DNA of 64,000 nt from Psammoneis japonica. Lineage: Eukaryota. The notes under the pieces are model-generated. The model had not been told where the DNA came from, did no database searches, and worked only from the letters and a program-made list of their open reading frames with translations. Positions 13,185 to 62,158 of the stretch are shown in pieces. Each line of letters starts with the position of its first letter. Position 1 is the stretch's first letter. The DNA is taken from positions 682,001-746,000 of the forward strand of contig QPGO01000007.1 in the NCBI GenBank assembly GCA_008632985.1. Direction: 5' to 3'. A program made the translations under genes and the position numbers.

Positions 13185-13187
13185 AAA

Positions 13188-13251
<64 letters not shown>

Positions 13252-22811: not shown

Positions 22812-22847
<36 letters not shown>

Positions 22848-33676: not shown

Positions 33677-34173
33677 GGTGATGCGTCGATTGTTGTTGTG
33701 GAACGAGGTCCAACCGCCAAAACTGTGAGAGCCAAGCCGCCAAATTGAAAATGTCACACCAAACTTGTGAGCGTTTGGCTTTCTCGTGGTAAAAGCTAGC
33801 GAAATTGAATTTCCACTCCCGCGCAATAAGTAGGTGCTTCCGTCATGACGTCAGCGAGCTAAACTAACGGAATCCATCGCAAATGGCGCGGAGATCATGA
33901 TCACCGACCGTCTACGGTATGGTATATCAGCTGGAAGAGCAAGCGATGGTAGTTTGAGATGATGCGTTTGTGAAAAGCAGCATGTGGCATTGACTGGTTT
34001 TGGTGGAGGCTGGTCGGGCTCCAAAAGCTAGCTTCTCTCAAGGTGGCTTTTCCATGTTGCGGACGAGCAAAAGGCAAGAAGCCTACCTTCTGAATCCGAC
34101 TTGATTTAGCTTTAAAAGAAGAAAAGTCTATGTAGATAACATTGGTTTATGTACTGCGGTTCTCCGATAAGTG

Positions 34174-35875: not shown

Positions 35876-36548
35876 GTTGAATTTGATTACTTCAGCACTA
35901 ACAACGACAACAAGAGCCTGACGACTCTGCTGATAAGATATCCCTTGGATACAATGAGAATGCGGCGTTCTCGTCGCTGTTGTGATTGAAGGGCTTGAAG
36001 GGCGTGTTTTGTGGTGTTTCGGTGTTTCTTCACTCTGAGATGAATCTAAAATCGAATCTTACCTGGAATCTTTGGATAATTTCCTTCAGATACGATGAAT
36101 TTTGTTTGTACAAAATCTGAAATTTCATCTCGTCAATCAATATATTAAGCGGCAAATACATATATTTGAATATAATTATTCATTGCGTCAAAGTTATCAT
36201 TCTATGTGCGAAAACGCCGTGACAAAAAGCGCGTGTCACAAACTCGTGGTCACAAAATGGACACAAAATGAAAAAAGACTGAAAATTGCGACGAACTGTA
36301 GGAAGTAAACACAATTTTTAATTTAAAACTTAAAAAGGGGCACACGTTGACACTTCATCCACTCAGTTTTGTCAGAAGGCGTGCCTAGACGTCTCCCACA
36401 GAGCGGTTCAAGTTGGCAATCGGGCACAATGTCGTCATCCAATTCTCGCAGAGACACTGCTTTTCTGCCATCTCTAGTAGAAAAGCAGAAATAGTTTTCA
36501 AAACTTTACAAGACGCAAAAGTTGACACACACCCCAACTCATTCCTCC

Positions 36549-38114
36549 TCACGCCCGAACAAACATCTCAGCAGGCATACCGTGCTTGGGGCGTTGCACT
36601 AGATACGTCTCGACCGGTTCAAGTGCGTAGTCGGGAGCAATGTCATAATCCAATTCTCGCAACAACAGGGCCAGCACAAGTGTTCCTTCTTGCAGCGCAA
36701 AGCGCTGTCCAGGACAATAGCGCCCGCCGGCTGAAAAGGCCAACAAGTTTTCTCGCTTGGCCGCGGCAACTTTATAAGACTCATTTCCAACAGGTCGCTC
36801 CACCCATGTACCATTGCTCGTCTGTACGACCCATCGTTCTGGATGAAACTCTGTGGCACAATCAAAGTTGTGCTCTTGTCGGTGCAAATGATAGAGTGGA
36901 ATGATCGCGTAGGAACCGGAAGGAGCGACGAAACCTCCGTTGAGTTTGAGGTCTTTTGTCAATGTCCGTGTGGTTGCTGTGACTGGGGGGTGCAATCGAA
37001 TCGCCTCTGTCAATACAGCATTGACGTAGGTCAATTCGGAAATGTCGGGAATGCCTTTGTCCGTCCAAACACGACGAATCTCTTCCAGACAATGGTCTTG
37101 GATTGTCTTATGCTGCTTTAGGTAGTAGAGAGCATATACCAACGCAATAGAGGTTGTATCATACCCAGCAAACAGAATGCTCAACAGAGTGTCAATCAGC
37201 ACACGCTCTTCCTTCATGGTTTCATCCAACAACAACAAGTCCAGAAAGTCCTTGTTCTTCTTTGCTGTGATCTCTTCGATAGTCGTTTCCTTCATTCTGC
37301 TCTCCACGATTTGCATGAGATTACTTCGAATCAGTCGATCCGCGGCAGCATGCTGACGGTTAAGCTTGGTGGGAATCCAGTACAACGAGTTGAATGGCGA
37401 CAGAGCCCCTCGCAAACGACGCCTCGCTTCTTTTTGCATAAAGCCAAAGGCTTGCGCTTCCTCACCCAACTGCAGATTCTTACAATTGCCACCATCCATT
37501 CCAAACGCGGTTTGTATAAACACATCAACCGTGATGCATTTGCACAAGTCGGCCAAATCGACCTTTACTTTGGCTTGGCCCGCACTCTGTATGCTTTTCA
37601 CCAATCGATTTGTTACAGCCACCATGTCGGCCTTGTAGGACTCGACCGCCGAGGGTGAAAAGGATCGTTGAATCAAGATTCGATGTGTTTTCCATGCTTT
37701 TCCATTCATAATGGCCAAATTCGAGTTTCCAATAAACTTGGCAAAGTGATACCGTACAATGGAAGCCATTTCCCGGTCGGCCGTGGCGTTCAAAATGGTT
37801 CGAACATCGCTGGCATGCCAAGCGGAAAACGCTCGTTGGTTCAAAATGTAGTATCCCGTCTGACCAAATTCATTACAATGATCCATCATGACGAAACCAT
37901 GTCCCTTGTCGAAATCATCGCACACGAGATTCGGCAATTGTCCTGAAATCCAATGAGAATTGGGTGGAGAGGGAAGTTCCGGAAACGGCTTGGCTTTTTC
38001 GAGTCTGCGCTTGAGTAGAAGAAACCCGGCGGTTGCTGTGGTCAAAACGACACCCAAAGAAACCAATGATCGAGAAGAAGATGAATCGGATGAGATACTA
38101 GTATGCATTGGCAT
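36549..38114 (-). CDS. Cytochrome P450, 521 aa, intronless
   Basis: N-terminal TM plus Pro hinge, I-helix AGYDTT, EAIR (ExxR), PERW, heme motif FSAGGRYCPG. Confidence 0.96.
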   Translation of the reverse strand: MPMHTSISSDSSSSRSLVSLGVVLTTATAGFLLLKRRLEKAKPFPELPSPPNSHWISGQLPNLVCDDFDKGHGFVMMDHCNEFGQTGYYILNQRAFSAWHASDVRTILNATADREMASIVRYHFAKFIGNSNLAIMNGKAWKTHRILIQRSFSPSAVESYKADMVAVTNRLVKSIQSAGQAKVKVDLADLCKCITVDVFIQTAFGMDGGNCKNLQLGEEAQAFGFMQKEARRRLRGALSPFNSLYWIPTKLNRQHAAADRLIRSNLMQIVESRMKETTIEEITAKKNKDFLDLLLLDETMKEERVLIDTLLSILFAGYDTTSIALVYALYYLKQHKTIQDHCLEEIRRVWTDKGIPDISELTYVNAVLTEAIRLHPPVTATTRTLTKDLKLNGGFVAPSGSYAIIPLYHLHRQEHNFDCATEFHPERWVVQTSNGTWVERPVGNESYKVAAAKRENLLAFSAGGRYCPGQRFALQEGTLVLALLLRELDYDIAPDYALEPVETYLVQRPKHGMPAEMFVRA

Positions 38115-39693
38115 GGTGGGAGAGGGAGAGTATCTGCGTTGTATGCTCTACTTAATAAAATCAATGAGAAAGTTCTCGGGTGGAACGTTGAACCAACCGA
38201 ATGAATGAACGAACGACCTGAAGATAGAAGATAGAGATCATGAATCATCATCAGTCAAGTCTTGAGTCAGTCGTCCTTGCCACGCGTTCGGTCGTGAATG
38301 GGCGCGTGTCCTTTCGAGGGATCAATCGCACGAGCGATACGTGCGCATGCATTACGTACGCGCCGCACTACACACGCATTGTGTGTGCAGGCAGGCAGAT
38401 CAGAGCAGCAAAGAACAGGTTATCTTCATCGGGAGTCAACTCCAGGAATGCCAGATTCAGACAATGCCACTGCATTCTCATTTGTGCAGTCAGTGAGTGT
38501 CATGGTGGGAGAATGGTGCCAGCTTTCTGGCTCTGCAAACAACTCCACATTTTGGCGTTCATCACACACAAGTTCATGGTGACCATGTGCAACCACAACA
38601 GGGCCTGGCTCAATGTGCTTCACAAGGGTGACACATCATGCCCCACTCTTGTCCCATGCCAGGCCACAGGTGGGTTAACAAACATTCAACATTTCACCTG
38701 GGTTGCAAATGTCACTTTTTCTCAGTGCAACTGCAGCTCACTGTCTTCGAGACAATCTTCACAGCCGTGTTGCTCTGGATGACAACATGCCATGCCATGC
38801 CTTGCCTCAAGAGCTTCACCAGCTTGATGCTCAATTTTGCATCTTCCCCTCCAATCATCATGGATGGAGAACATCAGTGTGGCAGCAGACATGTGCTCTG
38901 TGTGCTGTCTCAAAGCTCCGCTGTGCCAGCTCTTTGTGCACTTCCGTCAATGACTTGCATCTGCCCAGCCACAGGCCTTGCCACAAGCTTGATGACTCTG
39001 GATCCCCCAATGGGAAGGTGCTGCCACATTTGGGTCTTCTGTCTTCATCTCTCTTGGATGGAGCCCAACAATTGCTGTGGAACCAGGGTGTCTTGTGGAG
39101 GCTTGGATCAAGAGTCAGAACCCCAACTCTGACCCCAATGCCTTCCAGTTGCTCTCATTCCACCTCTTCAACTCCTCCATTGCTGCCTCTGTCACAATCT
39201 TCACCCATCATCTCTGACATTCTTTGGTCACTCAAACCCAGGAGTCTCTCTTGACAATCTAGCCAACAATTCAGTGGCCATGCCTTTGTCGCCATGTCAT
39301 GAAATGTGCAGAGTTCACATGAGTCATTGCCACTCATGGTTGGCAATCATCCACAACAACAAATTGTGGCTGGTTGAACAACCATGATTTGGTTTAGCAC
39401 CCTTTCCAGGTTGCAGGGATTTTTCACCCATGTGCATCAGAGTTCTTGTCTGACATCACAAAAGAGCAGGAAAATGCTTCTGCCATGCTTGAAGCCAACA
39501 GCCCGCAAGAGTGGCTTGTTTGAACTTGCAAAACTTCTTGCCCTGCAATGGCTCAGTCATGAAGTCTCCAAGCATGTCATCAGCAGGACAGCATTGCACA
39601 CCATGCATCTTGTTTGGCCTGCTTAAAAACTTGTCATTCAGCACCCCCAAGTTCTTGTGGCTTGACATCAGGTCATCCACATGGAATCAGAAG

Positions 39694-39927
39694 AGTCGAG
39701 ATGCAGTCCTGCAGCTGGGTGGGATGGACAAGACCTCGGAGGTTGGTGGCAATGTGAACGGCAACAGAGGCAAACAGATGCTTGTTCAAAGTCATTGTCT
39801 AAAAATTGTGACGAATGTCGTTGCTTCTGTTTGAATCAATTTTGTGATGAGCCAATTATTTCGAAGAGAAAATCTGAGTCTGGGTTGCAGTCGTGAGATG
39901 CGACCAGAATGATGTTGAGTCGTGACT
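39694..39927 (-). repeat. 3' LTR (AGTC...GACT)
   Basis: 220/234 identical to 46697-46930, no indels. PPT GGTTGAGAGGGAG at 39940-39928 on the minus strand. Confidence 0.95.
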
Positions 39928-42900
39928 CTCCCTCTCAACCAAGAGAGCTTGCTGGCCCACAAGAGCCTTTCCAGCCGCACGGAATGCATCGGTCCGCAGT
40001 CCCTTCGTGAACTGATCGGCTGGTTGCTCTAGAGTGCTGATGGGGTGGACATCGATCTCCAATTGTTCGACTTAAGTCCTAAACCAGTGGTGCGGGATGC
40101 CGATGTGTTTGGTTCGCGGAGACAACTTGGGCATGCGTGCGAACTTGAGGCACGCGGAGTTATCTTCGTACACAACGGACGCAGGCAGGACATTCTGCGC
40201 TACAGGCGAGTCATCGGTGCCTTGGGTTACGAGCTCAAAAGCCTTGGAGTGAGTCATGACAGGGTTTTGGCGGTCAGACGTTCCGAGTGCGTGGTGGTTG
40301 AGCTCCTTGAGAACTTCACGAACAGGGATGAGATCACGCACAGCTTGAGAAAGTGCGACACACTCCGCTTCCACAGTCGACAATGCTGCAAGAGTCTGCA
40401 GCTTGGACACCCAGACAAGCGGGCAGCTGGCGCAGCAGACAAGGCATCCAGTCCTGGACTTGACAGAAACTGGGTCTTGACCATCTTCCACACCAAATGA
40501 CCCCGTGAAGTCAGAATCGACGCAACAATCAACTCAATGATCTTGCGCAGGCTTGAGAATGAGACCTTCAGCAGCAGTTGCTTTGAGGCATCGGAGCATC
40601 CGCTTCACTGCAGCAGCGTGGGACGCTCGGGGTGCAAACGAGAATCGAGCTGCTTGATGTGTGGCATGTGCAATGTCTGGCCGGCTGTTCGCTGCCAAGT
40701 GCATCAACATTCCAACAACTGAGCGACAATCGCAGGGTTCATCAAAAGGTGGGCCGTCCGTGTCAGCACCAACAGCCGCAGGTGGAGCTGGAGCAGATGC
40801 TCCATTGCAATCCTGCATCTGTGCGGTGCGCAGGACCTTGTCAATTAGACCGGGTTGAGTGAGCAGAAATCGACCCTCGGAGAGCTTTTCGATCTTGATG
40901 CCGAGAAAGTTGCCGACTTCTCCTTCGTCTCTAAGTTCAAATGCGTGGCGATGTTCGTCGTCGGAGACTCCTAACTTGCGAATTTCGGCTTCTAGAGCTT
41001 CAGCTGAAGCTCCAGCAAAAACGGTGTCGTCGACGTGTGCCACACACATCATGCCCTCTTTGAAATACAAACAGGGATCTGTGGCTGAAGGTGCCCATCC
41101 GCGCTCGGTTAAACCAGCTCGTAACTTCTCGCAGAAGCCCTTGGGAGACTGTTTTAGGCCGCACAGTCCTTTCAAAAGTTTGAGAACCACATTGAGTCCC
41201 GACCTTGGCGCAAATCCCTTCGGCGGTGTCACACAAACTTCTTCGGCGATGTCAGCTTGGCAAAAGGCTGTGGTGCAGTCCACCTGACGTGCAGTCCATC
41301 CCTCCTTTAATGCCGCAGTGAGCATGAGTCGGATGCTGGACCATTGCACAACCGGCGCGTGGGTTTCAAAGCAGTCGACTCCTTCTTTCTGTAAATCACC
41401 GCGGACGCAGTGTCGGGCCTCATGCTTGAGAGGGGTTCCATCTGGGAGTCTCTTGAGCTTCAGTGCCCATGTGCCTGGAAGTGCATTCACGTGCGGCTGA
41501 CGCTCGACTGCTTTCCAGGCTCGACGATGTGTGAGTGCGTTGACTTCAATTTTCATCACCTCAATCCATTCGTCGGCGTCCGGACCTTTCAGAGCATTGT
41601 GCAACGAAGGCACATCAGGGTCCTTGGTTTTCTTGCTAGCTGCGTGGGCTCGTGGATCGCCGATGTTGATGGCACCACTGTCCAAATCCGTCTCGAGAGT
41701 CGCCAGATACGCCAGCTGAGCCTCGTGTCTGATCGGCAGTGGCATTTCCTTGACGGAGCTGAAGCAGACCTCATCTACAAACTTGGCAGAGTTGAGCTGT
41801 CCCTTGGTTGACCGTGAAGACCGTCGCAGCCCTGGCACTCCCTCTGGATTCGTCACAGGAGGTGTCTCGACTGGGGGAGGAGCTGTTGGTTCCGTCGGCA
41901 CTTCGGGTGGCGGAAGTTCGTTGCCATCTTGAGGTTCAGGTGGCTGAATTGGCGTAGAGTCCACAGAGTCTGTGGGAGTTTGAGTCGCAGGTGGGGCTGG
42001 TGGCGTTGGATGCTGAGTCGCAGGTGCGACTCGATCGGCAACGTCGTCGCGAGAAGTGGGTGAATCCGGCACAGTGATGATGGAGCAGGCTCAAAATGGC
42101 CGTGAATGCGTGTTGCTCTGGCCAGTTCTCACTCTTTACGTTGACGCTCTGGAGGGGCAAGCCACTCATCGTGTAAATGAACTGCTTGATCCTTCTCCAG
42201 AGGGATGCACATCGATTGGTTGAGGCACAAGTGTTCCCAGTGATCGGGTGGATCCGTCTCCCTCTCGATTGATGGTGCGGCAGTGAAGAGATCATCAAAG
42301 ACCACATGACACTGAGGAGCAACACTTCCAGTTTGAAGATTGAGGACCAAAGGAACCTCACTGGAATGGATGGCACTGAGTCCCACGAACAAAGCGCGAC
42401 GAGTGCGAGGCTCCCAACGCGGGAGCTTCTTGCCGGAAGCGAGGGTCGGATCAAGTGCGTACGCCGGACATCCCCATGTGTGAATGTCGCGCAACCGATG
42501 TCTTGGCACTGTTGAGCCGGTGAAAATGTCCGCTGGGCAATGTCCCTTGGAATTTGGGGTGACATTGTAGATGTGCGTGGCACAAGAAACTGCCATGGGC
42601 CACAGGGAGCTGTCAATTCCCCCCTTCCAGTGGATTGATGCATGAAGCAACATCGCTCTCGCCATGTTGGAGATGCTGCGGATGCCCCGCTCTGCGACGC
42701 CGTTCTGATGATGGGCGTTGGTTCCACAAAACGGAGACGTTGTTCATGTTCTCATGTGTGTTGTGCAAAAGCGTTGGCCTTAAAAGCGCCACTGTCGGCA
42801 AGAAATTCTTGGACGATGACGCCGTGGTCCAAAGCATGTTTCTCAAACGCTTGCTTCGCTTGCATCGTCTCAACAGCGGAGAAACCTGGTTGGTGCTCGA

Positions 42901-45900
42901 CCTGGACATGGCCAGAGGCATGGTCGACAAAGATGCAACCGCCCTTGAATTGCTTGGACGTGGCTTTGCCATGTGAGTCGAAGGTGCGGCCTAAAAGGCG
43001 GGACTCAAAATGATCAACGCTGACAGCCTGACCCGGTCGAAGATGGTCAGCACGAAGGGCCCCGTCGCATTCAGGGACTGTCGACTTGTGAGCAGATCCA
43101 AGGGAGCATCCATGACCTTTAGCATGTTCGCATGCCTCGCATCTTGGGTGGTCACACTTCGCTGCGGACTTGAAACGGTTCGATGGGAACGGAACTGCGC
43201 GGAGAAGTGCTTGGACGCGACCAAAGTTCAAATGGCCAAAACGGGCGTGCATTTCGAGAAGAAGCTTTTGGCCTGCCGTGAGGTTTTGATTCTCCTCGTT
43301 GAGGATCTGTAGATTCACTTGAGGAGTGGCAGATGCGCCCTTGGTCATCGACGCAATGGGCAAGTGGCTTGATGGATGACATGGCACGACCAACTTGCCT
43401 GTCCCGTCAACATGTAAATGGAAAGTGGTTTCATCGCCCTCACACTTCCCACGCACCCCCTTCTCTTCGTTGAAGAGGCATTGAGGCGACAGCAGGCGCT
43501 GACGGGCTCCAGGAACGCAGTGTGCCATGGTGTTCAGTTGGATGGTGGCGCCACTCGGCATTGTGAACACCCATGCAACCGGACCGGCACCCTGGATGGT
43601 GAGACCGTTGGCAATCCCATTGATCTGCAAGGGTTTCTTGGGAACAGTCACAGGCCCCGTAAAATCATCTTTGTCGGGGGCAACAGCCAACGTGGCACCA
43701 GCATCCATGACGACCGTGAGAGCCTCGTCCGACAGACCGATGAGTGCCTGCGGATTGGATGCAAGGAGGTCGGCTTGAGATTGTCCGGTGAGTGGTTGGA
43801 TGGTGGAGGTGTTGTAGACGACTGGTCTAACACTTGCTTCCTCCAACAGTTCCACAGGATCTTGAAAATGGGCAGTGTCCACGATGTGATTCGGCAGACA
43901 GAGCTCGTCAAACCGGAAGAAATCTGGGCTGAAGTCCTCAAGAGCGTCGAAGAAATGTTTCTGGTCGTCGAGAGGTTCCAGTTCCTCACAGGCATCAAAG
44001 AAGGCTGATTCGTCCATCGCATCAGACCGTTCAGCGACTTCTAAGCTCTCCCAGTGGGCCTTGAGACGAGTGCTCAGTGCGTGTGATGGATGGCGCGCGA
44101 CAAACTCGGTGAGCACTTGCGTGCCTTTGATCCTGTGACATTCGAACAGTGACCCCGTATCTAACACTATCCGGTCATCCAGCTCTTCCACAATGTGGTA
44201 GACTTGAGAGCTGGCGGTCGAAAAACGACTTGGCACGTTCGAGAATGGATGCTCGGGCTGTTGACCGGCACAAATGCTGACCATGCCATCACTGCAACGG
44301 ATGGGACCATCCAGGAGGCTGGAAACCCGTGCAAAGTTGGGAGTTTGCGCTGGCGGCGTAGAGCTCGAGGGACACATGGGATCGGAGCAAAGCAAAGATG
44401 TAGCACCGTTTCCCAAAACATGGCGGCGAGCCAGAATGTGAACAGCTTGACTCGTCCCAAGAGTGAGCGACGCGAAGTGGGCTCGTCTTTGACGTCCTCG
44501 TGACAATCATCCGCATCCAGGACCTCTGGATTGTAGAAATCGAAGCCACGATACGTGGCACACGGAGGTGAGTCGTAGCATGCGTCTTCAAAGTGTACGT
44601 CGTGTTCAAGGATGAGATCTGACTTTGTGTCGTCTGACAGCATGTCCGTCAAATGTGCGGGAGCGTCAAAGAACTCATCTGGATGCTTGACAGAGCACAG
44701 CTTCAAGGCCGGAAACAACTCAATGGCCGGTGGTTCGTTTTCAAAGGTGGAGAAAGCGTCGGAGCATTCGCAGAAGTCATCGGCGTCTTCGGGAGTGACA
44801 GTCTCAACCATGATGGGAGACACGACTGGATCCACGACTGAGGTGAGTGGAGGTGGGCTCGTTTCGTTGCAAACCACCTCAGTGCTAACGACTGCATCGC
44901 TCTCCCTCTCGGCCGAAGAAGCCGGAGCAACAACAATTGCAGCAGTGACAGGGGCGGAACAGAAATCCGGGTCGGCAACGGCACCCGTAGCCGCGCACCA
45001 CATTCCCGTGAAAACCAACTCGTTGGGGTCGGATTCGTCTCCCTCTGGTTCCTTGGCAGTCTGAGTGGGCGGACCCATGGGCACGCCACTGTCCGGATCA
45101 GCAACGGAAGACAAATTCCCGGCTGGGGTCTCCTTGGGAGGGCACCTGTGGTCGTCGGTGTGGTCCGCGGTAGAGTGCTTCTGGTAGATTCCAGGTTTGT
45201 CGGCACCCTTCGCTGTGCACGTGGCACACCACTTCCATTCCTTGCCATTCTTGTCCTTCTTCGTTTCTCCATCAAATTTAGTGCGCCAGGCAGCAATGGG
45301 GCGCCTCTTCTTCTTGGAAGGGTTGTCTGCAGGCGGCGGATTGGGAGGAGGATCGTGCGCGGCGGTTTGGCGTTGCACTTCGGGCACGTCTTCTTGGCGC
45401 ACCCCTCGAGACCACAACCATGACAGTGCTTTGTCTTCCCAGGGTTGTCCGTAGTCGAAAGATTACTCTCGGGTAGCTTGGCGACCAATGCAGGCCACTC
45501 CCCGTCCTTCATGAGCTCATTGTGTTGCTCCTGAATCCACGCAATGATGCCGACCGGTCCAAGCGTGTTGCAATCGCTGTCGGACACGATGTCAGCAGGA
45601 TTCTTGAGGTGGCACTTGCGTTCCATAGTCTTGACGTCGTCGAGCTTGTTGTAGACTCGCCGATTGAAGTGTTCAGAGGACGTAGAGGAGATCTTGTGGA
45701 GCAGCTTGGAGCTTGTGTTCGCCGGAAGCGCGCAGTCGGTCTGCACAATTTTCACGATGCGAAGAGCTTCGGCAGCGAAGTCCGTGCAATCCTCGCCGGG
45801 ATGGTCAACCAAACTGAGGTCTTCTAGCTGCTTCTTAGCCGTCTCAACATCCGTTAGAGCGCTAGTGTTGCAAGCATCGAGAGCCATCATGAATGGAACA

Positions 45901-46684
45901 GATCCAGGGTGGTCTTGGCAGTCCGAGAGATGGTTGAACTTGGTCTCGATTTTCTCGCGAAAGGCATCAGTGATTCTTGAGTGAACGAGAAGTTGAGAGA
46001 GCCCGATGTCGTCGAGCTCGATCTCATCGTACTTGGCATCATCGGTGGCTGCTTTCCCAACCGTGTGCTCGTTCACGAGATCGGTCACAGCAAACTCGTG
46101 AAGATGGTCGAAGACATGTTGAACCTTGTCGTCGCTGTTCTTGACATGGTAGAACGTCTGCTGACCGTGGGCTTCTACTAGATCTCGAATGGTCTTGACG
46201 AAATGGTCCTTGTCAAGCTCGTTGATGGGACCGTCCGAAATCTCAAGTCGACCGTTGAACTTGGAAGTCATTGTGGAAGCTTGTTGATCGCAGAGATGTC
46301 GTTCTATCGAGTCGAGAGCCTTGGGATGACGGCGCTGAGAGGCGAATCGGTGGGTTCTGTCGTTGGATTGTTCGCAGCTGTTGTTGAGTTTGGAACCACC
46401 AATGTAAACCCCGTGGGTTGGGTGAGTTCCACCACGTGACGGCTTGGTTGGAGCCGGAGGAGCGGTCGCCGTGGCGTCAGCGGCCATTGCGTCGGCAAAC
46501 GCCTTTGCCAGAACAGCCGGATCGATGGCAGCCATGATGGAGAGTGTGGCACGAGAGGTTCTTGTTAGAGTGAAGACGAGAGAAGCAAGAGAGACTCAGC
46601 TGTTTCCCGGGTTTGCTTCAAAATCAAAAACCGAAAGCGTCCGTGACGATGACTCGGTCAGGAGCTCTCGTCAACGTGCAAATT

Positions 46685-46696
46685 GGGCTCACAACC
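46685..46696 (-). promoter_or_regulatory. Primer-binding site (half-tRNAiMet type), mutated
   Basis: GGTTGTGAGCCC directly abuts the 5' LTR. The expected complement of the tRNAiMet anticodon arm is GGTTATGAGCCC, as in copia/Ty5-type priming. Confidence 0.75.
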
Positions 46697-46930
46697 AGTC
46701 GAGATGCAGTCCCACAGCTGGGTGGGATGGACAAGACCTCGGAGGTTGGCAGCAATGTGAATGGCAACAGAGGCAAACAGACGCTTGTTCAAAGTCGTTG
46801 TCCAAAAATTGTGACGAATGTCGTTGCTTCTGTTTGAATCAATTTTGTGATGAGCTGGTTGTTTCGAAGAGAAAATCTGAGTCTGGGTTGCAGTCATGAG
46901 ATGCGACCAGAATGACGTTGAGTCGTGACT
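46697..46930 (-). repeat. 5' LTR (AGTC...GACT)
   Basis: Direct repeat of 39694-39927, followed by the TSD AGAAG. Confidence 0.95.
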
Positions 46931-49900
46931 AGAAGGGGTGCTGCTTGCTGTTGACTGTTTGATTGGTGGCAATGCATGGATTGCATGGGTTGAACTTGGA
47001 CTCTGTCTTCTCCCCAAGTCTTTGCAAAATTGCTTGTGCTGAAGTGGAGCTGTGGTCAACATGCCATGGATGGCTCTGATGACTTGGACATGAAGGACTC
47101 TCTTGCTTTTTTCCAGGACCAGCACATGCAGTCCACACAGATTGGGGTCAATGCTCACCCAGCATGTTGACCAACACTTTTGTGATCTTCATCACAATCT
47201 GGTCTTTGCCTTCCTCAGGCTCTGGCATCATTGGCTGCACAAACACACTTGGTGCATTGGTGCTCATGACATCATGCTCTTCATTGGCATCAACAATTGC
47301 TGTGTCATCAATGTTTTTTCTGAGGATGCCGGGGCTGGCTGAGGTGTCTGGCCACTCTTGGGTCAGCTTCCCTTTGCAAACCACTTGCCCTTTTGTGCGG
47401 CCATCATGTTCATTGGTTGGGAACATCAAGGCCACCATTGTCTTGGCCCTTTCAGTTGGAGTCATGTTCTTGACCAGTGCTGGTGCAAAGCACACTTGCT
47501 CACACAGTTGCTTCACATCTCCTCTTTCTCTGAGGCATTGTGCCCCCTCTGACCACATGCTTTGAGGCCTTCATGCAGCAAATGTTGTTGGGCAAATGAA
47601 ACGCCCTTCTCCCTGATCAGAGTCAGTCATCAATCTTGCACATGAAGTGTGCTGGCACCATTGCTGTCTCCATGTCATGATCTGTGTCATCCTCTGGATT
47701 GGGGCTCATGTTTGTTCTTAAATGATGGCAGTGTTTTAGCTTGTTTCTCTCTTGTTCTGCTTCATCAGTGTCTGTCACTCCTGCAAATCAAACTTTTGTT
47801 TCTTCTGGATTCACATGATTTCATGTTGAAGGTTGTGCCATGTTTTGTGCCACCCCTGGCTGCTCTGCCAGGCATGCTGTTTGCCTCTTCCACCAGCCTT
47901 TCTCCTCCCCAATTGTTGTCCTCATCAGCTTGGTCAGCAGCATGATCTTGTGGTTCTGCAGCTCCTTTGTGCTCCTCACTGTTTTCACACTCTTTGTTTT
48001 TTTCACTTCTGCAGTCTTCATCTGGTGCTGCTTCTTGGATGCCGTGCTGTTGACCAGGACCAGATGCTCTCTTGTCAGCTGGAATCTCATTTGCTTCTTC
48101 ATGTTCATCATCTGAGTCTGCCTCATCTTCATGTCATGCAGTTGGCATCATTGTGATTGTCTTTGCATTTGCCCTTGCTGTTGCTTTCATTGATGTTGCC
48201 TCCTGCAGTCCAACCAGCATCATGCAAATTGTCTCCATGTTTGCCCCTGAATTTAAGTTTTTCCTTGACACCTTGTCAGTGGCCATCTTCTCAACCGCCT
48301 GTGTGCTGTGCATGTCAGTCAAGGGTGCGGAGGTGCGCTTGGTGCAGGGAATCAAAAGCTTGTCTGTGAGCAGGTTTGCAGTGCTCCACCCTTGGGCAAA
48401 TCAAAATGTGGTCACAGGTGTGTGCTGTCAACACCACGTGCATCTATGGTGTTTGTTCTTGGGTCATTCTCAACATGAGAAATCACAAATTTCCAAAACC
48501 TGAGCTGGAAGTGTTTGTCACAATCAAGGTTCCTTCATTGCATGACAGTGTGTGGGCTGCAAGTGTCAGAAATCCTTTCCTTTTGTGGGTGCACATTCAA
48601 CACAACAGCTTTCTTGATCACAGCATGCTCACATGTCAACTTGGGCATTGTCTTGTGCAGCACACAATGTGCAGTGGCTCAAGTTTGCTTCTTGACGGTC
48701 TGCATGCTCTGCTCAACTTTGGGAACATGGTCTTTCATGATTGTGGAGATCAGCTCTAGATTCATGCCATCAGCCACTTCTGCTGGCATTTCCTTGAACT
48801 TGGGGTCACACTCAACAAAGTCAATCTTGAACATGGCCATGCTGCGCTGTTCTTGGAGAATCATCATGTCCAATGCTTGACACACTTTCTCTCTGCTTCT
48901 TGTGTGTTTCAGGTGGCATGGCCACAACATTGTTCAACTCATGAGAATGATGCATGTGCTTGGCCTTGCCTCATGTTGTGTCCACTGGTGGACCCCAAGT
49001 GGCCACCAACCTGTCCATGTCTTCAGTTGTGATGGACAAGTTCTTCACCTGGTCGGAACATGAAAACAGCTTGAAATCCCTCACATTGGGTGCTCCAGCT
49101 TCACAACACAGTCTGGGTGCTTGTTCAGCATTTGCCATCTCCCTCTTGGTGCATCCCATGGAACTCTGTTCTGCCATTGAAACTGTGGCTCCAGATGCAC
49201 TCTTGTGCTTCATGTTGGTCTGTCTCTTTGTCATCTGTGTCTTCTTCTTTGACAGCATGCTTGCATGTGTCTCACTTTCTTGGAGATCTTTTGCACAGTC
49301 AAAGAACTGCTGGCTTGGCACAAAGGCATGCAATCCAATGTCATTCACTTTGAACACCATGACTTGCTTGCCAGTCTTCTTGTCCAGCAGTCAGAACTCA
49401 CCTGCCACTCTGTTGTCACATGCAATGCAGTGCTTGCTCTTCACATCCTTTGGACTGAAGATGTTCTTTGTCACCATGTTTTGCAATCCAAGCTTTTCAC
49501 ATCCCTCCATCCAGGCATTTTGCAGTCCTTGTCCAAGGCATCCACTCCTGTGTTGGTGGACAGATCAATCTTGATCTTTGCTGGACACATGTTGTGTGCT
49601 GGTCTCTGGCTTGCTGCCATGTGCTGAAGGCAGAGCCATTGTTGAGGATGAGTTCATCTGACTTTTGATGCCAACATCAGCTTGGCTCAGGCTTGTCTCT
49701 GGCCTCTCTTTGTCCAGTTGCAAGTCACACCATGCATGCTTCTTCTTGCTGCCTTTTCTGTGGCTTGATTGGTTGGATCTGGATGTTGCATCAACACTTG
49801 TGCTGTCACTGTCCACTGATGAGTTGTCTTCATCTCATGTTTGTGCATGGCTCTGTCCCTTGTCACCTGGCTTCTTCTTGGCATTCCTGAGCCACTGATC

Positions 49901-51630
49901 ACAGGCAATCTTGCTCTCATGCTTGCAGCCAGGGAACTTCTTGTGGCTCAGTTTGCCACAGCAGTGGCACATCACAGGGTCATCTTGACTGTCCTTCTGT
50001 GCATGACCATGGTCCTTTGGATTGTCAGACCTCTCATTGTTTCTTTCATTCTTGTTGCTGTTCTTGTCATTTGAACCCTCGCTCCTCTCATTCTGACACT
50101 TGCAAGGGTCATTGTCTTTTGAATGACTCAGCAGCACATCCATTGCCTTGTCTGGGGTTTTTGGATGCTCTTGTCCTTGCCCAGGCTCCAATCTCTCACA
50201 AAGCTCTTCTTTGAGCTCTTGTGGAAGCAGTCATTGCTGTTCTCTGTGAACAAGTGTGTTGTCCATGATTCAAGTTCTGCTTTCTTCAGGTCAGCTTGAA
50301 CTGTCACAGCACTGTCCTTGTGCTCCTTGGTGTTCTCAATGAGCCCATCTGGCATTTTGCTTCCCAGACTGTCGCTTCCAGCATCTTGCTGATTCTTCAA
50401 TCTTGACAGACAGTTGTCCAGCAATTCACTCTCTCATCACTTCACTTCCAGCATGTGCTTCAGGAACTTGGCAAGTGCATGGAATGGGTGTCATCCTCTT
50501 GTTGAGTTGAGTGCAAGGGATTGCACAGGAAATGGATTTCACCAGACTTTCCACAACTCAAGTCAGGGTGTTTTTGGCCATTTCCCATCTCCCGTCTCAA
50601 AGGTGTTCCTTTTGTTCTTGGGTGTCCATGTCAGGGGCACACCAACCAAGTGACTTTCTCCCTGAACCTCCCTGTGTTGAACTCCCTCCACTTTGCCACA
50701 TCATTTCAAGACATTTTTTATTCAACCACCACATTTTGTTGTGTTTCTGTCCGGATTTTTCAATGAGCATGCCCACATTTTAGAAAAGAGTCTTCATGGC
50801 ATTGGAGCTGTAATGAAATCTTGGCATTTGCCGATCACTTCCCCATGTCAACACATGTGATGACATCATGGCCACAATGTCAAGTGCAGTGTGTTTCATG
50901 CTGTTCCCACGTGGCTGCTGATGTCACCACAATGTCAGATTCTGGCACACCATGGTGAAATGTCATGCAAAGTCATGACATCAGGTCAGATTTCCCTCCC
51001 CCATCTTGAAACCATTGCACTTCTTTTAGAAGTCTTTCCCCACCTGCCACCGCCAACTGCCAACTGCCACCAAAACTGCCACGATGCATCAACAACTGTT
51101 GCCAGCAGATTTTGCCACCAAACACTTTCTCACTGACAATGCCAATGCATGACATGATTTGTTTTGCACTGATGAGTGCATCTGTGAAAAGAAGAGAGGT
51201 GAGAAAAAGTCCAAAAATGAACAAAAGCTGCTTTTGTCATTGTGCTGTTGTTTCATTCTCACATTCTCAGTGAGTGAATCACTCCATGGCATTTGACGGA
51301 CTCCATTGATTCAGCACATTTTTTTGTTTTCTCAACCTCTTGTTTTCCTTTGTTCTTTGTCTGCATTTCTGCAGGAAAATGCCAGCATGTCATGTGGCAT
51401 GGCTCAAGTTGACACCATGTCATGCGGGCAGCTCAAGTTGACACCACACTGTTTTTCAAAAAGTCTGGCCACAAATGGCAGACAAGGTTGCTCTTGTCTC
51501 AACATTTTGAGCAACTGCCTGGGTTGCCAGCTGCAGCTGCACCCAGGCAATGTCTTTCTGCAAAATTGTTCATGTGGCCTGGGATGCCTGTGTGAATCCC
51601 CGCCCCCCCCCCCCCACCTCTGAGCATCAA

Positions 51631-52072
51631 GACGGCCTCAGAGAGCCACATGGGTTTGCTCCCCGGTGAGACTGAGAGTGGTGCCTCCAAGGAAGGGGGT
51701 GCCATTCAATGTTGCAGACATGAAATCTCTGTCAAAAGGGTTTGGCTGCCTCCAAAAGCTGGTGCATGTGAATTGTTGGCATTTTGCTGGTTGTGGCAAC
51801 CTTGAAACTCTGCAAAGGACATGACAACCAGCAGCGACAGATGAACTTGCAAAAAAAAGTGAGTTCAAAAATTGTGGAAGAGATGGCCTCAGAGAGCCAT
51901 GGGTTTGCTCCCTGGCAAGACTGAGAGTGGTGTCTCTAAGGCAGCGGTGCCATTCAATGTTGCAGACCTGAAATCTCTGTCAAAAGGGTGCCTGCAAAAG
52001 CTGGTGCATGTTGATTGTTGACATTCACTGGCTGTGGCAACCCTGAAAGTCTGCGGAGGACATGACAGCCAA
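51631..52072. repeat. Direct duplication of about 200 bp (51631-51835 / 51882-52072)
   Basis: Shared GGCCTCAGAGAGCCA, GACTGAGAGTGGTG, GTGCCATTCAATGTTGCAGAC, GAAATCTCTGTCAAAAGGG. Confidence 0.85.
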
Positions 52073-54149
52073 TGGTGATGGACACACTTGCAAAAAAAAC
52101 CCAAAAAAGTGAACTCAAAAATCATGGAAAATGAACTCTGCTGCAGAGCACATTGCAAATCACAGAGCTTGTGGCTGCAACAATGCACTTTCAACTCACA
52201 TCAGGCATGGGGAGGCTGCAGCAGTGGCAGCCACAAAGACACGAACTCTGCCATGGAGCAAGCAGGAGCTGCTTTGACAATGTCAAGCACTGGGAGGGGC
52301 TACGGTGGCACTGTTGATGGCAGCTGCTGTGCAAGCGGTGCAAGACAAAAGCATCATGCCCAAAATCTGACATTGCATTTATGAGCATGCACAAAAAAGG
52401 CATCCACATCACAAGGAAATCAGACATTGCAAGAGGAATCTTCATCAACAAAGGAAAACATCAGTTTCAAAAAAGCATTTTTTTTAAAAAGGATGGATGT
52501 CTGCATTGTTCAAAATGACCACATTTTGAACAAATCCACAACAACCGCAGGCCATGCCATCATTGTTCAAATTGAAAATTGAGAACTTTGGTGATGGACA
52601 TTTCCAGCACCTGCAAACAGCAACCACAAAAACTTTGAAAACTGCAAAGGACACATCCAATGGAGCTGCAACCAACACACAAAATCAACTTTTCAGCTGA
52701 ACATTGGACACAAAGCATGGACAACTGGAGAGTGCAACTGGGGGCGGACTCGGTCATCCTTCCCACATGAACGGCACCAACAACAGGAAGCCCCAAACCA
52801 TCATGCCTGGAATGACATGGACAATGAATGGACAAGATGCCACAGATGAGAGAAATGATCAAGATTGATGCTGCAAGGTTTGCTTCATAAGATGCAGAGT
52901 GGGAAACCAAGCAGGCAGAGGAAGACAAAGGCATTGAAGAGGCAAGTGTGTGCCACATGTGTGTCTTGCATTGCCATTTCCTTTAAAAAAGAATGGCACA
53001 CAGTTCTTTTGCAGTTGCAAATGTCATTCACAGGCAACCAAGAAAGCAAGGGTGGCACTGATGAAGACGGTGTGGTGGGAAAAGAAAAGAGGTGCAGCGG
53101 GTGAGGCTTCAACAGAAATGGAGGAAGAACAAGCCGCAGATGTTTGTTCAACAAGCAAAGATGAGTGCAGCACAGACAGTGGCACAGAGGAGCACTTGTT
53201 CACCCAGAACTCTTCATGGTGTGCCCCACAGAGTCCAGCTGTGAGGATCAAAATCTGAGTGTGTGAAGAGCAAGAAAGAGTGGCCTGCAGTCAAAGGCAT
53301 GCAGTGTGAGCTGCAAAGAGTGGTTGTGATGGTGGTGCAATGGTGTGCATTGTGTTGCTGAAAAATGAAATGGCAAGGCCAACAATCTCTCTCTGGTGGA
53401 CGGGTGCATTGCGTTGCGCAATGTCAGATTTGAGCCAGGCAGTTCCAGTGGAAAACAGCACAAACACCCAATCTGGCTAGGTCAGTTCGTGAGGGGCCAG
53501 CAAATTGACATTTGCGATGTGACATCATGCCATTGTGCAAAAGAAATCTGACATTGCAGAATGACATTGTGGGATGACATCACATCATGGTCGTGCAAAA
53601 AGAAAGTGTGATGAGTCTCTCACATTTCCCTTGTGCCTTGATCCAGATGCTCCAACAAGGCCATGGAGCAAGGTGTGGTGTGCAGTTGAGGAGCTCAGGG
53701 GGAGGCAGGATGCTCAGCCATTGCTGACAGCCCCGCAGAAAAACCAGCAGCATTGGGCACAGCAAGCAGGGCAAGACAAAGAGCCACAACACCAAGCAGC
53801 AAGCTGGCAGAGAGAGCACACCCAAACAGGAGCAGCAAGCAGCAGCCAGAGCAAGGGAAAGACACAAGATGCTTTGCAGCAAGAGTGATTTGACAAGCAC
53901 CAAACAAGAGACACAAAGAAAAACAAACTCAGGAGCTGGAGAGGCTCTCAGGAAAGCATCCAAAATCACTGGAAAAATGATGACCCAGCACCAGAGAACA
54001 TGATGATGAGGTGCCTTCTTTTGGCAATGACACCAAAGACAGCAACAAAGACATCAAGGACAACATGAGTGGAGAAGCTGTAAAGAGACCACTGGGCAGA
54101 TGTTGTGGCCATTGGCAAATGATGTTTGGCCATCACTGAGGGGCTGCAT

Positions 54150-55880
54150 GGCTGTTCCCCCTTAAGGACTTAAATTCATCTTCATTTGCTCACAATGCTG
54201 AGACATGAGTCTGTGCCTTTGTTTGTGCTGCAACTCCTTGTCAAGGAGGAGGTGCTTTGTTCCTTTCAACAAGAGAGTCTCCTTGGCAATGAAACACAAT
54301 GTGTGTGGTCTTCTCTTGCAGGCTTGCAACAAGATGGGTGAGGGGTGGTCTTTTGGCCAAACTGTGCATTTCCAATTGATCCTTCTTGTCCAGATCAAAG
54401 AGCTCAACCTCCAATGAGGGTGGTTTGGCACTGCCGCTCCAACCCTCTTGGGAGTCTCATTGCTGCACACATCTCAAGCAGCAGAGGAGACCATCCTTGG
54501 CTCTGGCAACAAATTTTGTGATGCAGAGTGCCAGCCACAAAGGTGTGGTTGCAGCAGGTGTCTTCCAAAAATGTTGCCCACACTTGTGCACTCAATGAGA
54601 AATGACCTCTCATGCCAGACATGCCCATCAATGAGGACCCGTTCTTTGCAGCAAGCATGTCAACCACAAGATTGGCTCTGTCTGTCATTTGGGGGTCAAT
54701 CATTTGTGATGAATCACTCTGGACCAGGCCCAGCTGAGTGGGAGCAAGGTCCATGTGGGTGCCCACAACATGGGGCAGCTGCTTCCTCTTCTGCAGTTGA
54801 ATGCAAGGACCCTGTGAATCACCATGGGAGCATGTGCATCATTTTTGCAGGTGTGAAATTTCTTGCCTTGTGGGGCATTTGAAACAGACCCAAGCAACAG
54901 CCATTGTCACTTGCAAAAATGACAATGTTGCATTGTTCAACATGATGAAAACAGCCAAGGTTGATGTGGGGGGTCTTTCATCAAGTCGTCGACTGAAAGG
55001 AGTTTCTTGAGGCGGGTGGTGTGTGGAGCTGGCCCACCATGTCTCCCTGCATTTTTGTCAGTGGTGGTTGGCTGCAAACTGACCAACAATGATCAAGGCA
55101 GAACAGGTTGCATTTTTGGCTTTGTGGAGCCATTTGTTTGGGTGTCAATGTGCTCTCATCATGCGGGAAAGCCTGGGCCGCGTGCTGCACCTTGCAAGTG
55201 TGGTGCTGAGACAAAAAGTGCAGCAAAAAAAGGCTCCAAAGAAAATGATGATTGAATGTGTTGCCAAGCCCAAGCAAGTTTGATGTTTCCAAGGACAGAA
55301 GTGCAGCAAGGCATGCCAACTGACTGGGGACAATTGTCAAATTTGATCTCAGCCGGTTGGCTGTTCCTTGAGGGAGGCCCAAGAAGCAAGCAAAGGTTGG
55401 TGGGCTGGGGCATGCCCTCCACCATTCATGAGCCATTTTTCAGCCATTTTTCAATGCCATCTGGAACAAAGTCAATTGGATTCTCTTTGTTGAGATGGTT
55501 TCCAAAGAAACCCACTGTGTGTGGCTGAGCTTGCCACACCAAAGTGCGGGGGGCAAAGCAGTCGTGTGCATGAAACAGAGACTCTTTTGTGGTGCTTGCA
55601 CCCATGTGTGTGCAACCCTCGTGTGTCCAAAACAAGGAGTTCTCAAGTTGTGAAACATTTTTACCATCCACAATTGAGCACGTGAGGGACAACAAATGGG
55701 GGGCACACACAAGCCAGCTGGACAGAGCCACGACATTCCATCGTTTTGTTGGAGCCACTTGCAAGTGCACTTCAAGTTGAGCATTGGCTCCACCGATTTC
55801 CGAGTCCAGGTCATCACACAAAACAATCACAATGTTTGGGCGTTTTATGGACAATGACAATGTTGTCAGGAGGATCAAGA
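54150..55880 (-). pseudogene. Sulfatase (formylglycine-dependent, N-acetylglucosamine-6-sulfatase-like) pseudogene
   Basis: Fragments in several frames: RPNIVIVLCDDLD, PICCPSRA (CxPSR), VGFFGNHLN, IVIFASDNGCCLG, PQGKKFH.CKND...PMVI, THMDLAPT.LGL. The 3' end is approximate. Confidence 0.8.
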
Positions 55881-56234
55881 TTTAAAAAGCAAGGCATGTG
55901 ATGCACGAAGCCTTGAACCGACGATCGTGGTAGCACGTGGTGGGGGCGCGGCAGGTCACACCAGGCGAGAATTTGTTACCTAGACAAATTTGATTTCCTA
56001 TTCATCAATGAGAAGCTGCTAGAGTAGTAAACCAACGCCATCATTCTTCTCATCTGTAACATCTAGCTAGAGAGAGTATTTTATGGCACTCTATACACCG
56101 ATATATTTCAAGCAGTAAATTACGTCATTGCTCACTCTAGAGAGAGAGAGCGAGAGAGAGAGAGCCTTACATCAGCGTCAAAGAGACGTTGGACTCAAGT
56201 CTCAAGTAGACACTGAAAAGCTGGTTCAACAGAA

Positions 56235-56762
56235 ATGTCACTATTTGATAAGGACGAAAACAAGGAGTCGAATGTATTTCCTACCGAGCCTGCTTTCTTG
56301 GTTCCCGTTCAAGTGAGAGACACTCCTGACTACGGAAAAGGGCACAAGGGTGTCTTTGCAGACGCGTCAATTGCGGCGGGCACCAAATTCTGGATGTGGA
56401 CGGATCGAGTACAACAGATTCATCGTGACGATTTGGACGGATACATAAAGGAAAACTTTTCGGACAAGGAACAAATTCGAACGTTTCTTCGTCAGGGTTT
56501 TGTCCTGCCCAACAAGCCCGATTTTTTCAATTCCAATCCGACGGACGCGGGACGCTTCATGAATCACTCTTGTGATCCAAATTGTGGTCCAGACGGAACA
56601 ATCCGGGCTATTCAAACGGGAGAGGAGCTTACAATGGACTATGGTTTTCATGGAGACCCTCAGTGGTATCAAATTCTGTGTCAGAAGTACGGAGTTGATA
56701 CTGAAGCCCAGATTGCAGCAAAGGCAAGAGCGAAGGAAATGCCAACTACACGTAGGTCATAG
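56235..56762 (+). CDS. Small SET-domain methyltransferase, 175 aa
   Basis: KGVFA, RFMNHSCDPNC, GEELTMDY motifs. Confidence 0.9.
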   Translation: MSLFDKDENKESNVFPTEPAFLVPVQVRDTPDYGKGHKGVFADASIAAGTKFWMWTDRVQQIHRDDLDGYIKENFSDKEQIRTFLRQGFVLPNKPDFFNSNPTDAGRFMNHSCDPNCGPDGTIRAIQTGEELTMDYGFHGDPQWYQILCQKYGVDTEAQIAAKARAKEMPTTRRS

Positions 56763-56936
56763 TGTGTGAAAAGGATGAAACCAATTCTCAGATCTGGGCG
56801 ACCCTCAGTGGTATCAAATTCTGTGTCAGAAGCATGGAGTTGATACTGAAGCCCAGATGTAGAAAAGGCAAGAGCGAAGGAAATGCATACACATAGGTCA
56901 TAGTGTATAAAGGATGAAACCAATTCTCAGATCTGG
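56655..56936 (+). repeat. Tandem duplication of about 140 bp of the SET gene 3' end (56655-56797 / 56800-56936)
   Basis: GACCCTCAGTGGTATCAAATTCTGTGTCAGAAG...AGGATGAAACCAATTCTCAGATCTGG occurs twice. Confidence 0.92.
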
Positions 56937-57243
56937 CGGAAGGAGTGAACTTCCATACGCGAACCTAGCACCGATCATAAATGCCAGATGGGGACAATTC
57001 AAAGGATCCATTTGGACGGGATGCGGAAAGCGAATGACAATTGCATGAATGACGGTCAACTTGTAGAGCAGTACAGACGTCCGTGCTGTGAGAAATACTT
57101 TTCTTCTACTACTAGCTCGAGACAGATAGGACTGAAGAGCACAACGGCACGCAGTATTCTGGATAATCCTGTTTCTCGATCATGAGTTCACAACATAGAC
57201 TCTGCCTATGGTTCCTAAGGAGGCAGCAACATACCAGTCAAAC

Positions 57244-62057: not shown

Positions 62058-62150
62058 GGTTGTTGCGCCGCCGCTGATGAAAAAAGTGTGTGCTGTGTGC
62101 CGTGGAAAAGTGTACCGGGAAGCTCGTAGGAAAAAAATGACTGCTTGATT

Positions 62151-62158
62151 TTTCCCGC
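62151..62158 (+). promoter_or_regulatory. E2F-consensus site TTTCCCGC about 95 bp upstream of the ZIP4-like ATG
   Basis: Exact match to TTTSSCGC, with TTCGAA (CHR-like) about 10 bp away. Confidence 0.35.

Follow-up and report, generated by a model that had tools for sequence, protein, structure and literature searches.

Hypermutation that erases the dinucleotide TpA has already been described in the chlorarachniophyte Bigelowiella natans, in mutation-accumulation lines reported in an April 2026 preprint by Mettrop et al. (bioRxiv 10.64898/2026.01.13.699255). According to the available text of that preprint, two integrated viral regions accounted for 231 of the 302 nuclear mutations, and of these 231, 230 were A→G or T→C, with all the GC-biased ones on TpA; the mutations occurred in 11 of 15 lines, at a rate of about 6e-7, roughly 1000 times the background. 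The larger viral region is single-copy and transcriptionally silent, and the genome contains 124 TA-poor, CA+TG-rich clusters, reverse transcriptase (RT) and DDE domains being enriched among the TA-poor genes. As the mechanism the authors suggest deamination of adenine, with a functionally untested ADAT2-like protein as candidate; CpG, diatoms and stramenopiles go unmentioned in the available text, and no flank preference is reported there (bioRxiv 10.64898/2026.01.13.699255). Here we describe a new case, from another lineage and much closer to saturation. The stretch analysed, hereafter the window, comprises 64,000 nucleotides of the Psammoneis japonica contig QPGO01000007.1 (positions 682,001 to 746,000; assembly GCA_008632985.1) and contains two old blocks of repeat DNA, A and B, a Copia retrotransposon flanked by long terminal repeats (LTRs) and nested in the older element that continues into block B, and two gene islands (Table 1). 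We consider it probable that these transposon-derived blocks have undergone a strand-symmetric TpA→TpG/CpA hypermutation at the DNA level, for which adenine deamination is the chemistry we propose. An initial annotation, made from the sequence alone, had arrived at a similar idea and knew of no description of such a pathway, a claim superseded by the preprint's TpA-only A→G/T→C hypermutation. In our own literature search, which left subscription journals and bioRxiv supplements outside its scope, we found no other paper on TpA→TpG/CpA hypermutation and none on diatoms.

We compared the number of TA steps observed with that expected from base composition (O/E), by region and in 1-kb windows. 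Block A (1-21000) contains 70 TA against 1378.7 expected, the left part of the host element (38451-39693) 4 against 79.9, and block B (46931-55900) 22 against 608.9, so that O/E in the old repeat blocks is 0.04-0.05. The nested Copia (39694-46930), with 68 TA against 373.8, reaches 0.18, and the gene islands, with 599 against 1019.0 (21601-38369) and 321 against 533.6 (55901-64000), reach 0.59-0.60. The near-absence of TpA from both repeat blocks beside normal islands, as first annotated, is thus real and far exceeds chance, and two spot counts given with it (one TA in 1-600, none in 47041-47700) were reproduced on recounting. Per kb, O/E was 0.02-0.11 within 1-21000, 0.00-0.11 within 47001-56000 and 0.12-0.27 within 40001-47000, as opposed to 0.42-0.95 in the gene islands. 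Since non-coding DNA inside an island (26001-28000) also has values of 0.65-0.95, coding constraint is no explanation of the contrast. TG rises to an O/E of 1.40-2.31 and CA to 1.28-2.27 in the old blocks, with AT, AA and TT all close to 1; this makes the loss TpA-specific rather than part of a general drift from AT to GC. The cluster rule of the B. natans preprint (at least three consecutive 1-kb windows with a TpA Rho of at most 0.43 and a CpA+TpG Rho of at least 1.52) picks out each of the 21 windows in 1-21000 and each of the 9 in 47001-56000; the Copia windows are within its TpA limit, and only some of them within its TG/CA limit.

The same loss shapes the stop codons. Over six frames, block A has 1085 TGA, 84 TAA and 30 TAG, compared with 560, 221 and 274 in the gene island, and with TGA nearly the sole remaining stop the block is filled with many long overlapping open reading frames (ORFs). 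The block borders are sharp. For both flanking genes, P450 and SET-domain, the TA-free state ends within about 250-400 bases of the start codon (38148-38420; 55846-56217), and the promoter-side spacers have normal TA; the border at the P450 promoter lies near 38370-38420, and dense TA is back near 55846. Within the window, TpA loss is confined to the repeat blocks. The old blocks are also depleted of CpG (O/E 0.02-0.59 in all; 0.13-0.59 in block A and 0.02-0.37 in block B), a feature absent from the initial annotation; in the Copia, CpG O/E is 0.80-1.03.

The direction of the change can be read from protein alignments. We aligned the RT ORF of the Copia with the corresponding segments of 80 intact homologs and took as Tyr columns those with a Tyr consensus of at least 60%. 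At the 13 such columns of the RT domain, the window copy has one Tyr, five Cys, five His, one Phe and one Trp, while all 22 Gly columns, all 4 Cys columns and 16 of the 18 Arg columns are retained. Each of the 80 homologs, by comparison, keeps at least 8 of 14 Tyr columns. The RT ORF as a whole contains 2 Tyr, 14 Cys and 17 His in 513 amino acids; the figure of two Tyr had been given correctly before, and for RNR2, where 8 Tyr in 297 amino acids had been given, we count 10 in 328 from stop to stop. Across the whole Copia polyprotein, 45 Tyr columns (up to 80 homologs) have become 7 Tyr, 16 Cys and 14 His, with the remainder other residues. When one intact homolog was compared with another at similar divergence, 53-67% of Tyr were kept and at most two had changed to His. 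A second Copia-type relic in block A keeps none of seven consensus-Tyr columns (three His and one each of Cys, Ser, Phe and Trp). All nine of the peptides initially cited as evidence of Tyr replacement could be located, though not in three unrelated elements as had been thought: six lie in the Copia at 40693-42317 (minus strand) and three in the second relic at 3318-4321 (plus strand).

The window copy differs from the consensus in 262 of 1008 columns of the polyprotein, and for each of these we determined which single-base reversal restores the consensus residue. TA>TG accounted for 41 columns and TA>CA for 24, CG>TG for 5 and CG>CA for 10, other AT>GC transitions for 13, other GC>AT transitions for 13 and transversions for 75, with two or more changes required in the remaining 81. 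Polarised changes are thus 65 of the TA type versus 15 of the CG type, and the 65 stand against only 13 AT>GC transitions outside TA. A polarised spectrum had been suggested as a check on the earlier idea; the TpA-specific excess of A→G and T→C is present in it, and Tyr is the consensus of the intact homologs at the positions concerned. These alignments show that the ancestral state was TA and that TG and CA are derived. The near-equal numbers of Tyr→Cys (16) and Tyr→His (14), together with raw TG/CA counts of 2199/2349, 1055/1017 and 661/530, show that both strands have been affected about equally, as had been proposed. Local departures from the overall balance do occur (TG/CA 83/142 in 14001-15000, 147/95 in 20001-21000, 109/69 in 42001-43000 and 108/56 in 46001-47000; binomial p 1e-4 to 3e-3); hits biased to one strand through transcription or replication, or else the original composition, might be responsible.

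Several familiar processes were considered and rejected. Decay of CpG as the sole cause of the TG/CA excess does not agree with the near-normal CpG of the Copia, nor with changed sites that are conserved Tyr codons (TAY). GC-biased gene conversion would not spare ApT, ApA and TpT, which are normal while only TpA is lost. The thymine-adenine photoproduct of ultraviolet light is a minor lesion, and near-total, domain-bounded loss is beyond it. Codon usage or selection is contradicted by the involvement of non-coding repeat DNA and by the destruction of conserved residues.

The two LTRs of the Copia provide information on timing. Over 234 nt they show 14 differences, and 13 of these fall in columns with a pyrimidine-purine (YpR) step in both LTRs; three of these YpR differences are CA/TG, three CG/TG, two CG/CA, one TA/CA and one TA/TG, so that the CpG-type share is 5 of 14. 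No TA is shared by the pair, whereas seven CG are. Where one LTR reads CA and the other TG, the two must have suffered separate hits at a TA (or CG), one on each strand. Fitting a two-lineage model to these very small numbers, on the assumption that both LTRs stem from one insertion, we obtain about 7 ancestral TA sites (an O/E of about 0.4, at the bottom end of the range of relatives given below) and rough losses per LTR of about 83% for TpA, 26% for CpG and 0.3% for other sites; of the three CA/TG sites, only about 0.4 would be expected from CpG. With a single difference outside YpR steps, and on such very small counts, the mutation rate of TpA would exceed that of other sites several hundredfold and that of CpG severalfold. 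Duplicates elsewhere in the blocks tell the same story: CA/TG makes up 69 of the 129 adjacent double mismatches across 17 pairs of block repeats (3262 columns with 484 mismatched bases), the next type having 8, and 6 of 197 across 20 gene-island repeat pairs. The changes thus accumulated after integration and independently in each copy, in agreement with the DNA-level action on repeats that the initial annotation had suggested. The older host element has lost more of its TpA than the Copia inside it, a difference that accumulation of losses in situ would produce. TpA is lost faster than CpG decays in the same DNA.

The sequence around TA influenced its survival. We counted NTAN tetranucleotides, with strands pooled, relative to 67 environmental Copia loci, which were found in metagenomes by an RT alignment search, encode relatives of the RT and, with a TpA O/E of 0.43-0.86, define the normal range for such elements. 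Survival in the Copia was 0.00 for ATAT, 0.03 for ATAA, 0.07 for ATAG and 0.08 for ATAC, as against 0.14 for TTAA, 0.20 for both GTAA and GTAC, 0.37 for CTAA, 0.42 for CTAG and 0.49 for CTAC. Of the 15 in-frame Tyr codons that survive, 8 are C|TAC and none follows an A. This is a first hint that TA steps with A before or T after them (ATA/TAT) are lost first. In the old blocks, 84 of 96 leftover TA lie in TAA/TTA contexts (TTAA 26, CTAA 28, GTAA 16, ATAA 14), which are either resistant to the process or re-created by ordinary mutation.

The nested element (39689-46935) is a complete Ty1/copia retrotransposon, with two LTRs, a 5-bp target-site duplication and the order gag-protease-integrase-RT-RNase H. 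Its coding region matches the Pfam domain RVT_2 at 9.8e-34 and gag_pre-integrs at 4.2e-05, the latter below its cut-off, and tblastn places it collinear with residues 33-2099 of intact diatom polyproteins, split over five frames by breaks at about 42075, 42730, 44275 and 45345. The polyprotein is 43-57% identical to 80 long homologs, of which those with a named source come from Fragilaria crotonensis; weaker matches include Chaetoceros, Fistulifera and Nitzschia, and the protein database search returned no relative more than 61% identical to the RT. For the rest of the family we turned to a public sequencing run containing 67% of the sampled words of 36001-46000, whose Logan contigs were assembled independently and have a word depth of about 64 in unique DNA; two further runs contributed next to nothing (14 contigs and none). 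In this run the family is abundant, with a summed depth of 3000-6000, or about 50-90 copy equivalents, at a likeness of at least 85%. Other copies have one extra base at 42078 (C), 42727 (A), 44274 (C) and 45356 (C), in 28-78% of the summed depth; since this holds for all four frame breaks, better-preserved copies of the family probably exist in the genome. Between copies, A>G was counted 127 times, T>C 133, C>T 104 and G>A 103, and each type of transversion only 6-20 times, and transitions in all four directions are what independent choices of TG or CA would produce. Two contigs of the run join 39686 to 46938 directly, with 11 other letters between and without the Copia; they probably represent further, insertion-free copies of the host element, the alternative being an empty allele on the other chromosome copy.

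As to mechanism, we propose that an enzyme would be brought to silent chromatin and would there deaminate adenine 3' of thymine to hypoxanthine, which would pair with C and be copied as G, leaving TpG on the struck strand, or CpA if the other strand was struck. A TadA/ADAT2-like deaminase would be the leading candidate, as has been proposed for B. natans. The mobile elements would be disabled through loss of essential Tyr, and TAA and TAG stops would be erased along the way. TadA and ADAT2/3 normally edit A34 of tRNA, the base next after the invariant U33, and both TadA-derived base editors and the ADAT-homologue editing of fungal mRNA favour a 5' T or U. Given this natural preference for U33-A34, an offshoot acting on DNA would favour TpA already. 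Most Copia elements of the diatom Phaeodactylum are, in the part of that study available, reported to carry H3K9me2/3 and H3K27me3 and not to be transcribed (PMC4504042). Silent chromatin is thus a plausible address of the process in diatoms, although the Phaeodactylum data say nothing on the present species.

The chemistry might instead act on the thymine side, since A→G on one strand and T→C on the other are indistinguishable in sequence and the self-complementary TpA yields the same TG or CA in either case. A TET/JBP-type oxygenase or another enzyme would then modify the T 5' of A within silent chromatin, and the resulting 5-hydroxymethyl- or 5-formyluracil would mispair with G and lead to T→C. 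5-Formyluracil is able to pair with G, and dinoflagellates have 5-hydroxymethyluracil in place of T, preferentially in TpA and TpC. We nevertheless regard thymine modification as unlikely, because the preference of TadA/ADAT for A after U fits TpA without a further assumption. The authors of the preprint, in its available text, also favour adenine deamination and have found an ADAT2-like candidate (bioRxiv 10.64898/2026.01.13.699255). A different and rather improbable reading is that TpA is the site of a symmetric, heritable modification of A or T that marks diatom heterochromatin, with decay as its footprint, as CpG decay is for 5-methylcytosine. It is the self-complementary target, the equal decay of both strands, the domain bounds, the parallel decay of CpG and the lack of a known enzyme that leave room for it. 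If true, a TpA mark would constitute a second, unrecognised epigenetic dinucleotide code common to at least two lineages of the stramenopile-alveolate-rhizarian (SAR) group.

Hypermutation of resident DNA, as we favour it, must also be set against editing during retrotransposition, in which an adenosine deaminase would act on the RNA or cDNA of the element, so that copies are born mutated and resident DNA stays untouched. Such editing would agree with LTR retrotransposons being the sole classifiable targets, and the LTR differences could be differences between copies if the assembly mixed a high-copy family. Subject to this caveat of a mosaic, however, the LTRs within an intact 5-bp target-site duplication differ at two TA/(TG or CA) and three CA/TG sites; the similar frequencies of Tyr→Cys and Tyr→His mean that both strands were struck; and the stronger depletion of the host element than of the nested Copia fits residence time. 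Moreover, TA-free DNA extends past recognisable elements, at single-copy depth, and the B. natans process, in the available account, works on resident single-copy DNA in asexual lines. We therefore consider editing during retrotransposition quite unlikely.

The depth data also bear on how the process finds its target. At a likeness of at least 85%, the TA-free stretches 53343-56000 and 38002-38668 have single-copy depth, although they could be diverged old repeats, and the description 'repeat-targeted' in the initial annotation may for this reason be too narrow. Short local duplicates in the gene island have kept normal TA. With TA-free stretches at single-copy depth, TA-normal island duplicates and a single-copy target in B. 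natans, it is unlikely that the process requires homology targeting of the kind known from repeat-induced point mutation (RIP).

A technical artefact, whereby a modified base of heterochromatin or a polishing error causes TA to be read as TG or CA, appears very improbable, even though a single sample of a single study contains the sequence, the assembly was probably made from it, and its library type is not on record. The independently assembled Logan contigs match the window without a single other letter over 47204-47710, 47704-48488, 48462-49092 and 49421-50954, and over 53019-56000 with one gap; 36001-39451 is matched with one other letter. With TA-free stretches matched exactly by an independent assembler (0 differences over 47204-50954 and 53019-56000), polishing or consensus error is excluded. 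If a base were misread on both strands, reads would disagree and contigs would branch, whereas each site has one fixed outcome; moreover, the same contigs carry normal gene islands, and the changes are consistent codon by codon. Hardly credible is an inherited composition, with families TA-poor on arrival by horizontal transfer or through adaptation and no host process at all, for although the displayed private differences are mostly CpG-type and TA loss may thus be largely family-wide, the depletion is common to two different Copia lineages and to unclassifiable DNA, CA/TG discordance between duplicates reveals independent hits, loss of 38 of 45 conserved Tyr along with four frame breaks is decay rather than adaptation, and relatives elsewhere have a TpA O/E of 0.43-0.86.

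A number of points nonetheless weigh against hypermutation by a deaminase as we propose it. The deaminase step is one that we purely infer. The argument from the LTRs comprises 14 differences only and assumes no assembler mosaic of a family of about 50-90 copy equivalents. Among the 22 best-supported differences between window and contigs (39953-46506; from the best 40 of 597 places), 11 are of the CpG type and one is TA>TG, while two adjacent ones make up one TG/CA pair; with such a CpG-type majority among private changes, the share of TA loss common to the whole family may be large. Across 38 one-kb windows, TpA O/E correlates with CpG O/E (rho 0.59), but the Copia alone carries this correlation, which is lost on its removal (rho 0.28, p 0.14). 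The public run is probably the assembly's own data, so the match leaves the sequencing chemistry unchecked. Finally, none of the 67 environmental relatives has TpA depletion, in a search where one of two patterns contained Tyr and thus biased it against hypermutated relatives. Two of these loci have a CpG O/E of 0.06 and 0.03 (L040 and L041, respectively), with TG/CA at 1.5-1.6 and TpA at 0.43-0.47; they represent CpG decay without TpA loss, so the two processes are separable in other hosts.

The features of the window are listed in Table 1. Only two Copia-type elements are recognisable, and the rest of the old blocks is unclassifiable. Among 217 stop-to-stop ORFs of the old blocks searched against Pfam (75 of at least 110 amino acids and 142 of 156 with 70-109, the other 14 having been left out by no stated rule), there was no long interspersed nuclear element (LINE), transposase or other credible domain, and the only matches were three at chance level (E 0.004-0.009). 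The earlier impression that LTR, LINE and DNA elements are affected alike therefore finds no support in this search. In the gene islands, genes are nearly intron-free, with RNR2, P450 and PP2C each forming one ORF, and RNR2 is 82-88% identical to proteins of the diatoms Proboscia, Thalassiosira, Ditylum and Odontella or of Triparma. No match reached 100%; the similarities point to a diatom or a near relative rather than to Bigelowiella, and the window is best read as nuclear DNA. A 1074-aa ORF at 22341-25565 (minus strand; 64-71% GC) begins with an N-terminal DUF7467 domain (6e-13) and otherwise consists of tandem repeats with periods of 9, 12, 30 and 48 nt, whose low complexity caused spurious tblastn matches to Copia polyproteins. 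In block A, a long (GA)n microsatellite at 12990-13240 reaches the sole assembly gap (85 N, 13060-13144) and is followed by an AAG/GAA-rich tract; the same ER-repeat motif is found several times between 11.4 and 13.4 kb.

Table 1. Features of the 64,000-nucleotide window, in order of position.
Feature	Position	Strand	Remarks
Old repeat block A	1-21600		almost without TpA, CpG-poor, TG/CA-rich
Second Copia-type relic (RT and RNase H part)	3318-4711	+	tblastn with Copia polyproteins, best E 5e-17; hypermutated
Gene island, internal control	21601-38369		DUF7467 repeat protein, RNR2, DnaJ, tesmin-CXC, PP2C, P450 (Pfam)
Left part of older TA-free element hosting the Copia	38400-39688		depth 68-89 versus 64 in unique DNA
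Target-site duplication AGAAG, left copy	39689-39693		same 5 bases beside both LTRs
Low-coordinate LTR (3' LTR)	39694-39927	-	234 nt, 94% identity to 46697-46930; 2 TA inside
Copia gag-pol coding region	39955-46487	-	four frame breaks; partly hypermutated
High-coordinate LTR (5' LTR)	46697-46930	-	234 nt; 0 TA inside
Target-site duplication AGAAG, right copy	46931-46935		
Old repeat block B, continuation of the Copia-hosting element	46936-55850		strongest TpA and CpG loss
Gene island, internal control	55901-64000		SET-domain gene and unnamed ORFs (Pfam)

What is new here is the host lineage, the retrotransposon targets, the near-saturation, the co-occurrence with CpG decay at a pace faster than it, and the hint of a flank preference. 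If our reading is true, this form of genome defence also exists in diatoms, which are dominant marine primary producers with good genetic tools, and the enzyme, its aiming and the extent of the process among eukaryotes become testable. Any assembly can be screened with a simple signature, namely a TpA O/E below 0.1, an excess of TG/CA and TGA as almost the only stop. Erasure of TAA and TAG also leads to long spurious ORFs, and transposons in such blocks are hidden from profile searches (0 of 217 ORFs here had a credible Pfam match).

Compared with known systems, the locus resembles RIP of ascomycete fungi in that transitions in a dinucleotide context riddle resident mobile DNA and destroy its coding capacity, and in the sharply bounded compositional blocks beside normal genes. 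RIP, however, converts CpA to TpA by C→T, lowers GC, creates stop codons and requires duplication and a premeiotic stage, whereas here TpA is destroyed (TG/CA O/E up to 2.3), GC is slightly up, TAA and TAG are erased and some TA-free DNA has single-copy depth. Decay of CpG through 5-methylcytosine likewise turns a self-complementary YpR step into TpG or CpA on either strand, and is active in the same blocks; it does not remove TpA, and in the Copia CpG O/E remains at 0.80-1.03 while TpA is at 0.12-0.27. TadA and ADAT2-3 have a preference for a 5' U or T. Hyperediting of repeat-derived double-stranded RNA by metazoan ADAR shares with these enzymes and with our locus the A→G outcome and the 5' U/T preference, that of ADAR for 5' U being stated in the available text of the preprint (bioRxiv 10.64898/2026.01.13.699255). 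The targets of ADAR and of TadA/ADAT2-3 are RNA, in contrast to the changes in resident DNA, on both strands and after integration, that we observe.

The B. natans process, as far as the available text of the preprint describes it, comes closest. Its host is a rhizarian, whereas gene similarity makes ours a stramenopile diatom; it strikes giant-virus and virophage inserts, ours LTR retrotransposons and unclassifiable repeats; and its rate was measured directly, where we have one small-count estimate from an LTR pair. TpA loss there has reached a Rho of 0.45 in the region of nucleocytoplasmic large DNA virus (NCLDV) origin, compared with a near-saturated O/E of 0.04-0.05 here, and the decay of CpG alongside TpA loss and the ATA/TAT flank preference are features of the present window. 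Copy number does not matter there and may not matter here, where some TA-free DNA has single-copy depth. In both, hypermutation affects foreign or mobile DNA alone and the remainder is normal (here within the window), and only TpA is struck, becoming TpG or CpA according to the strand.

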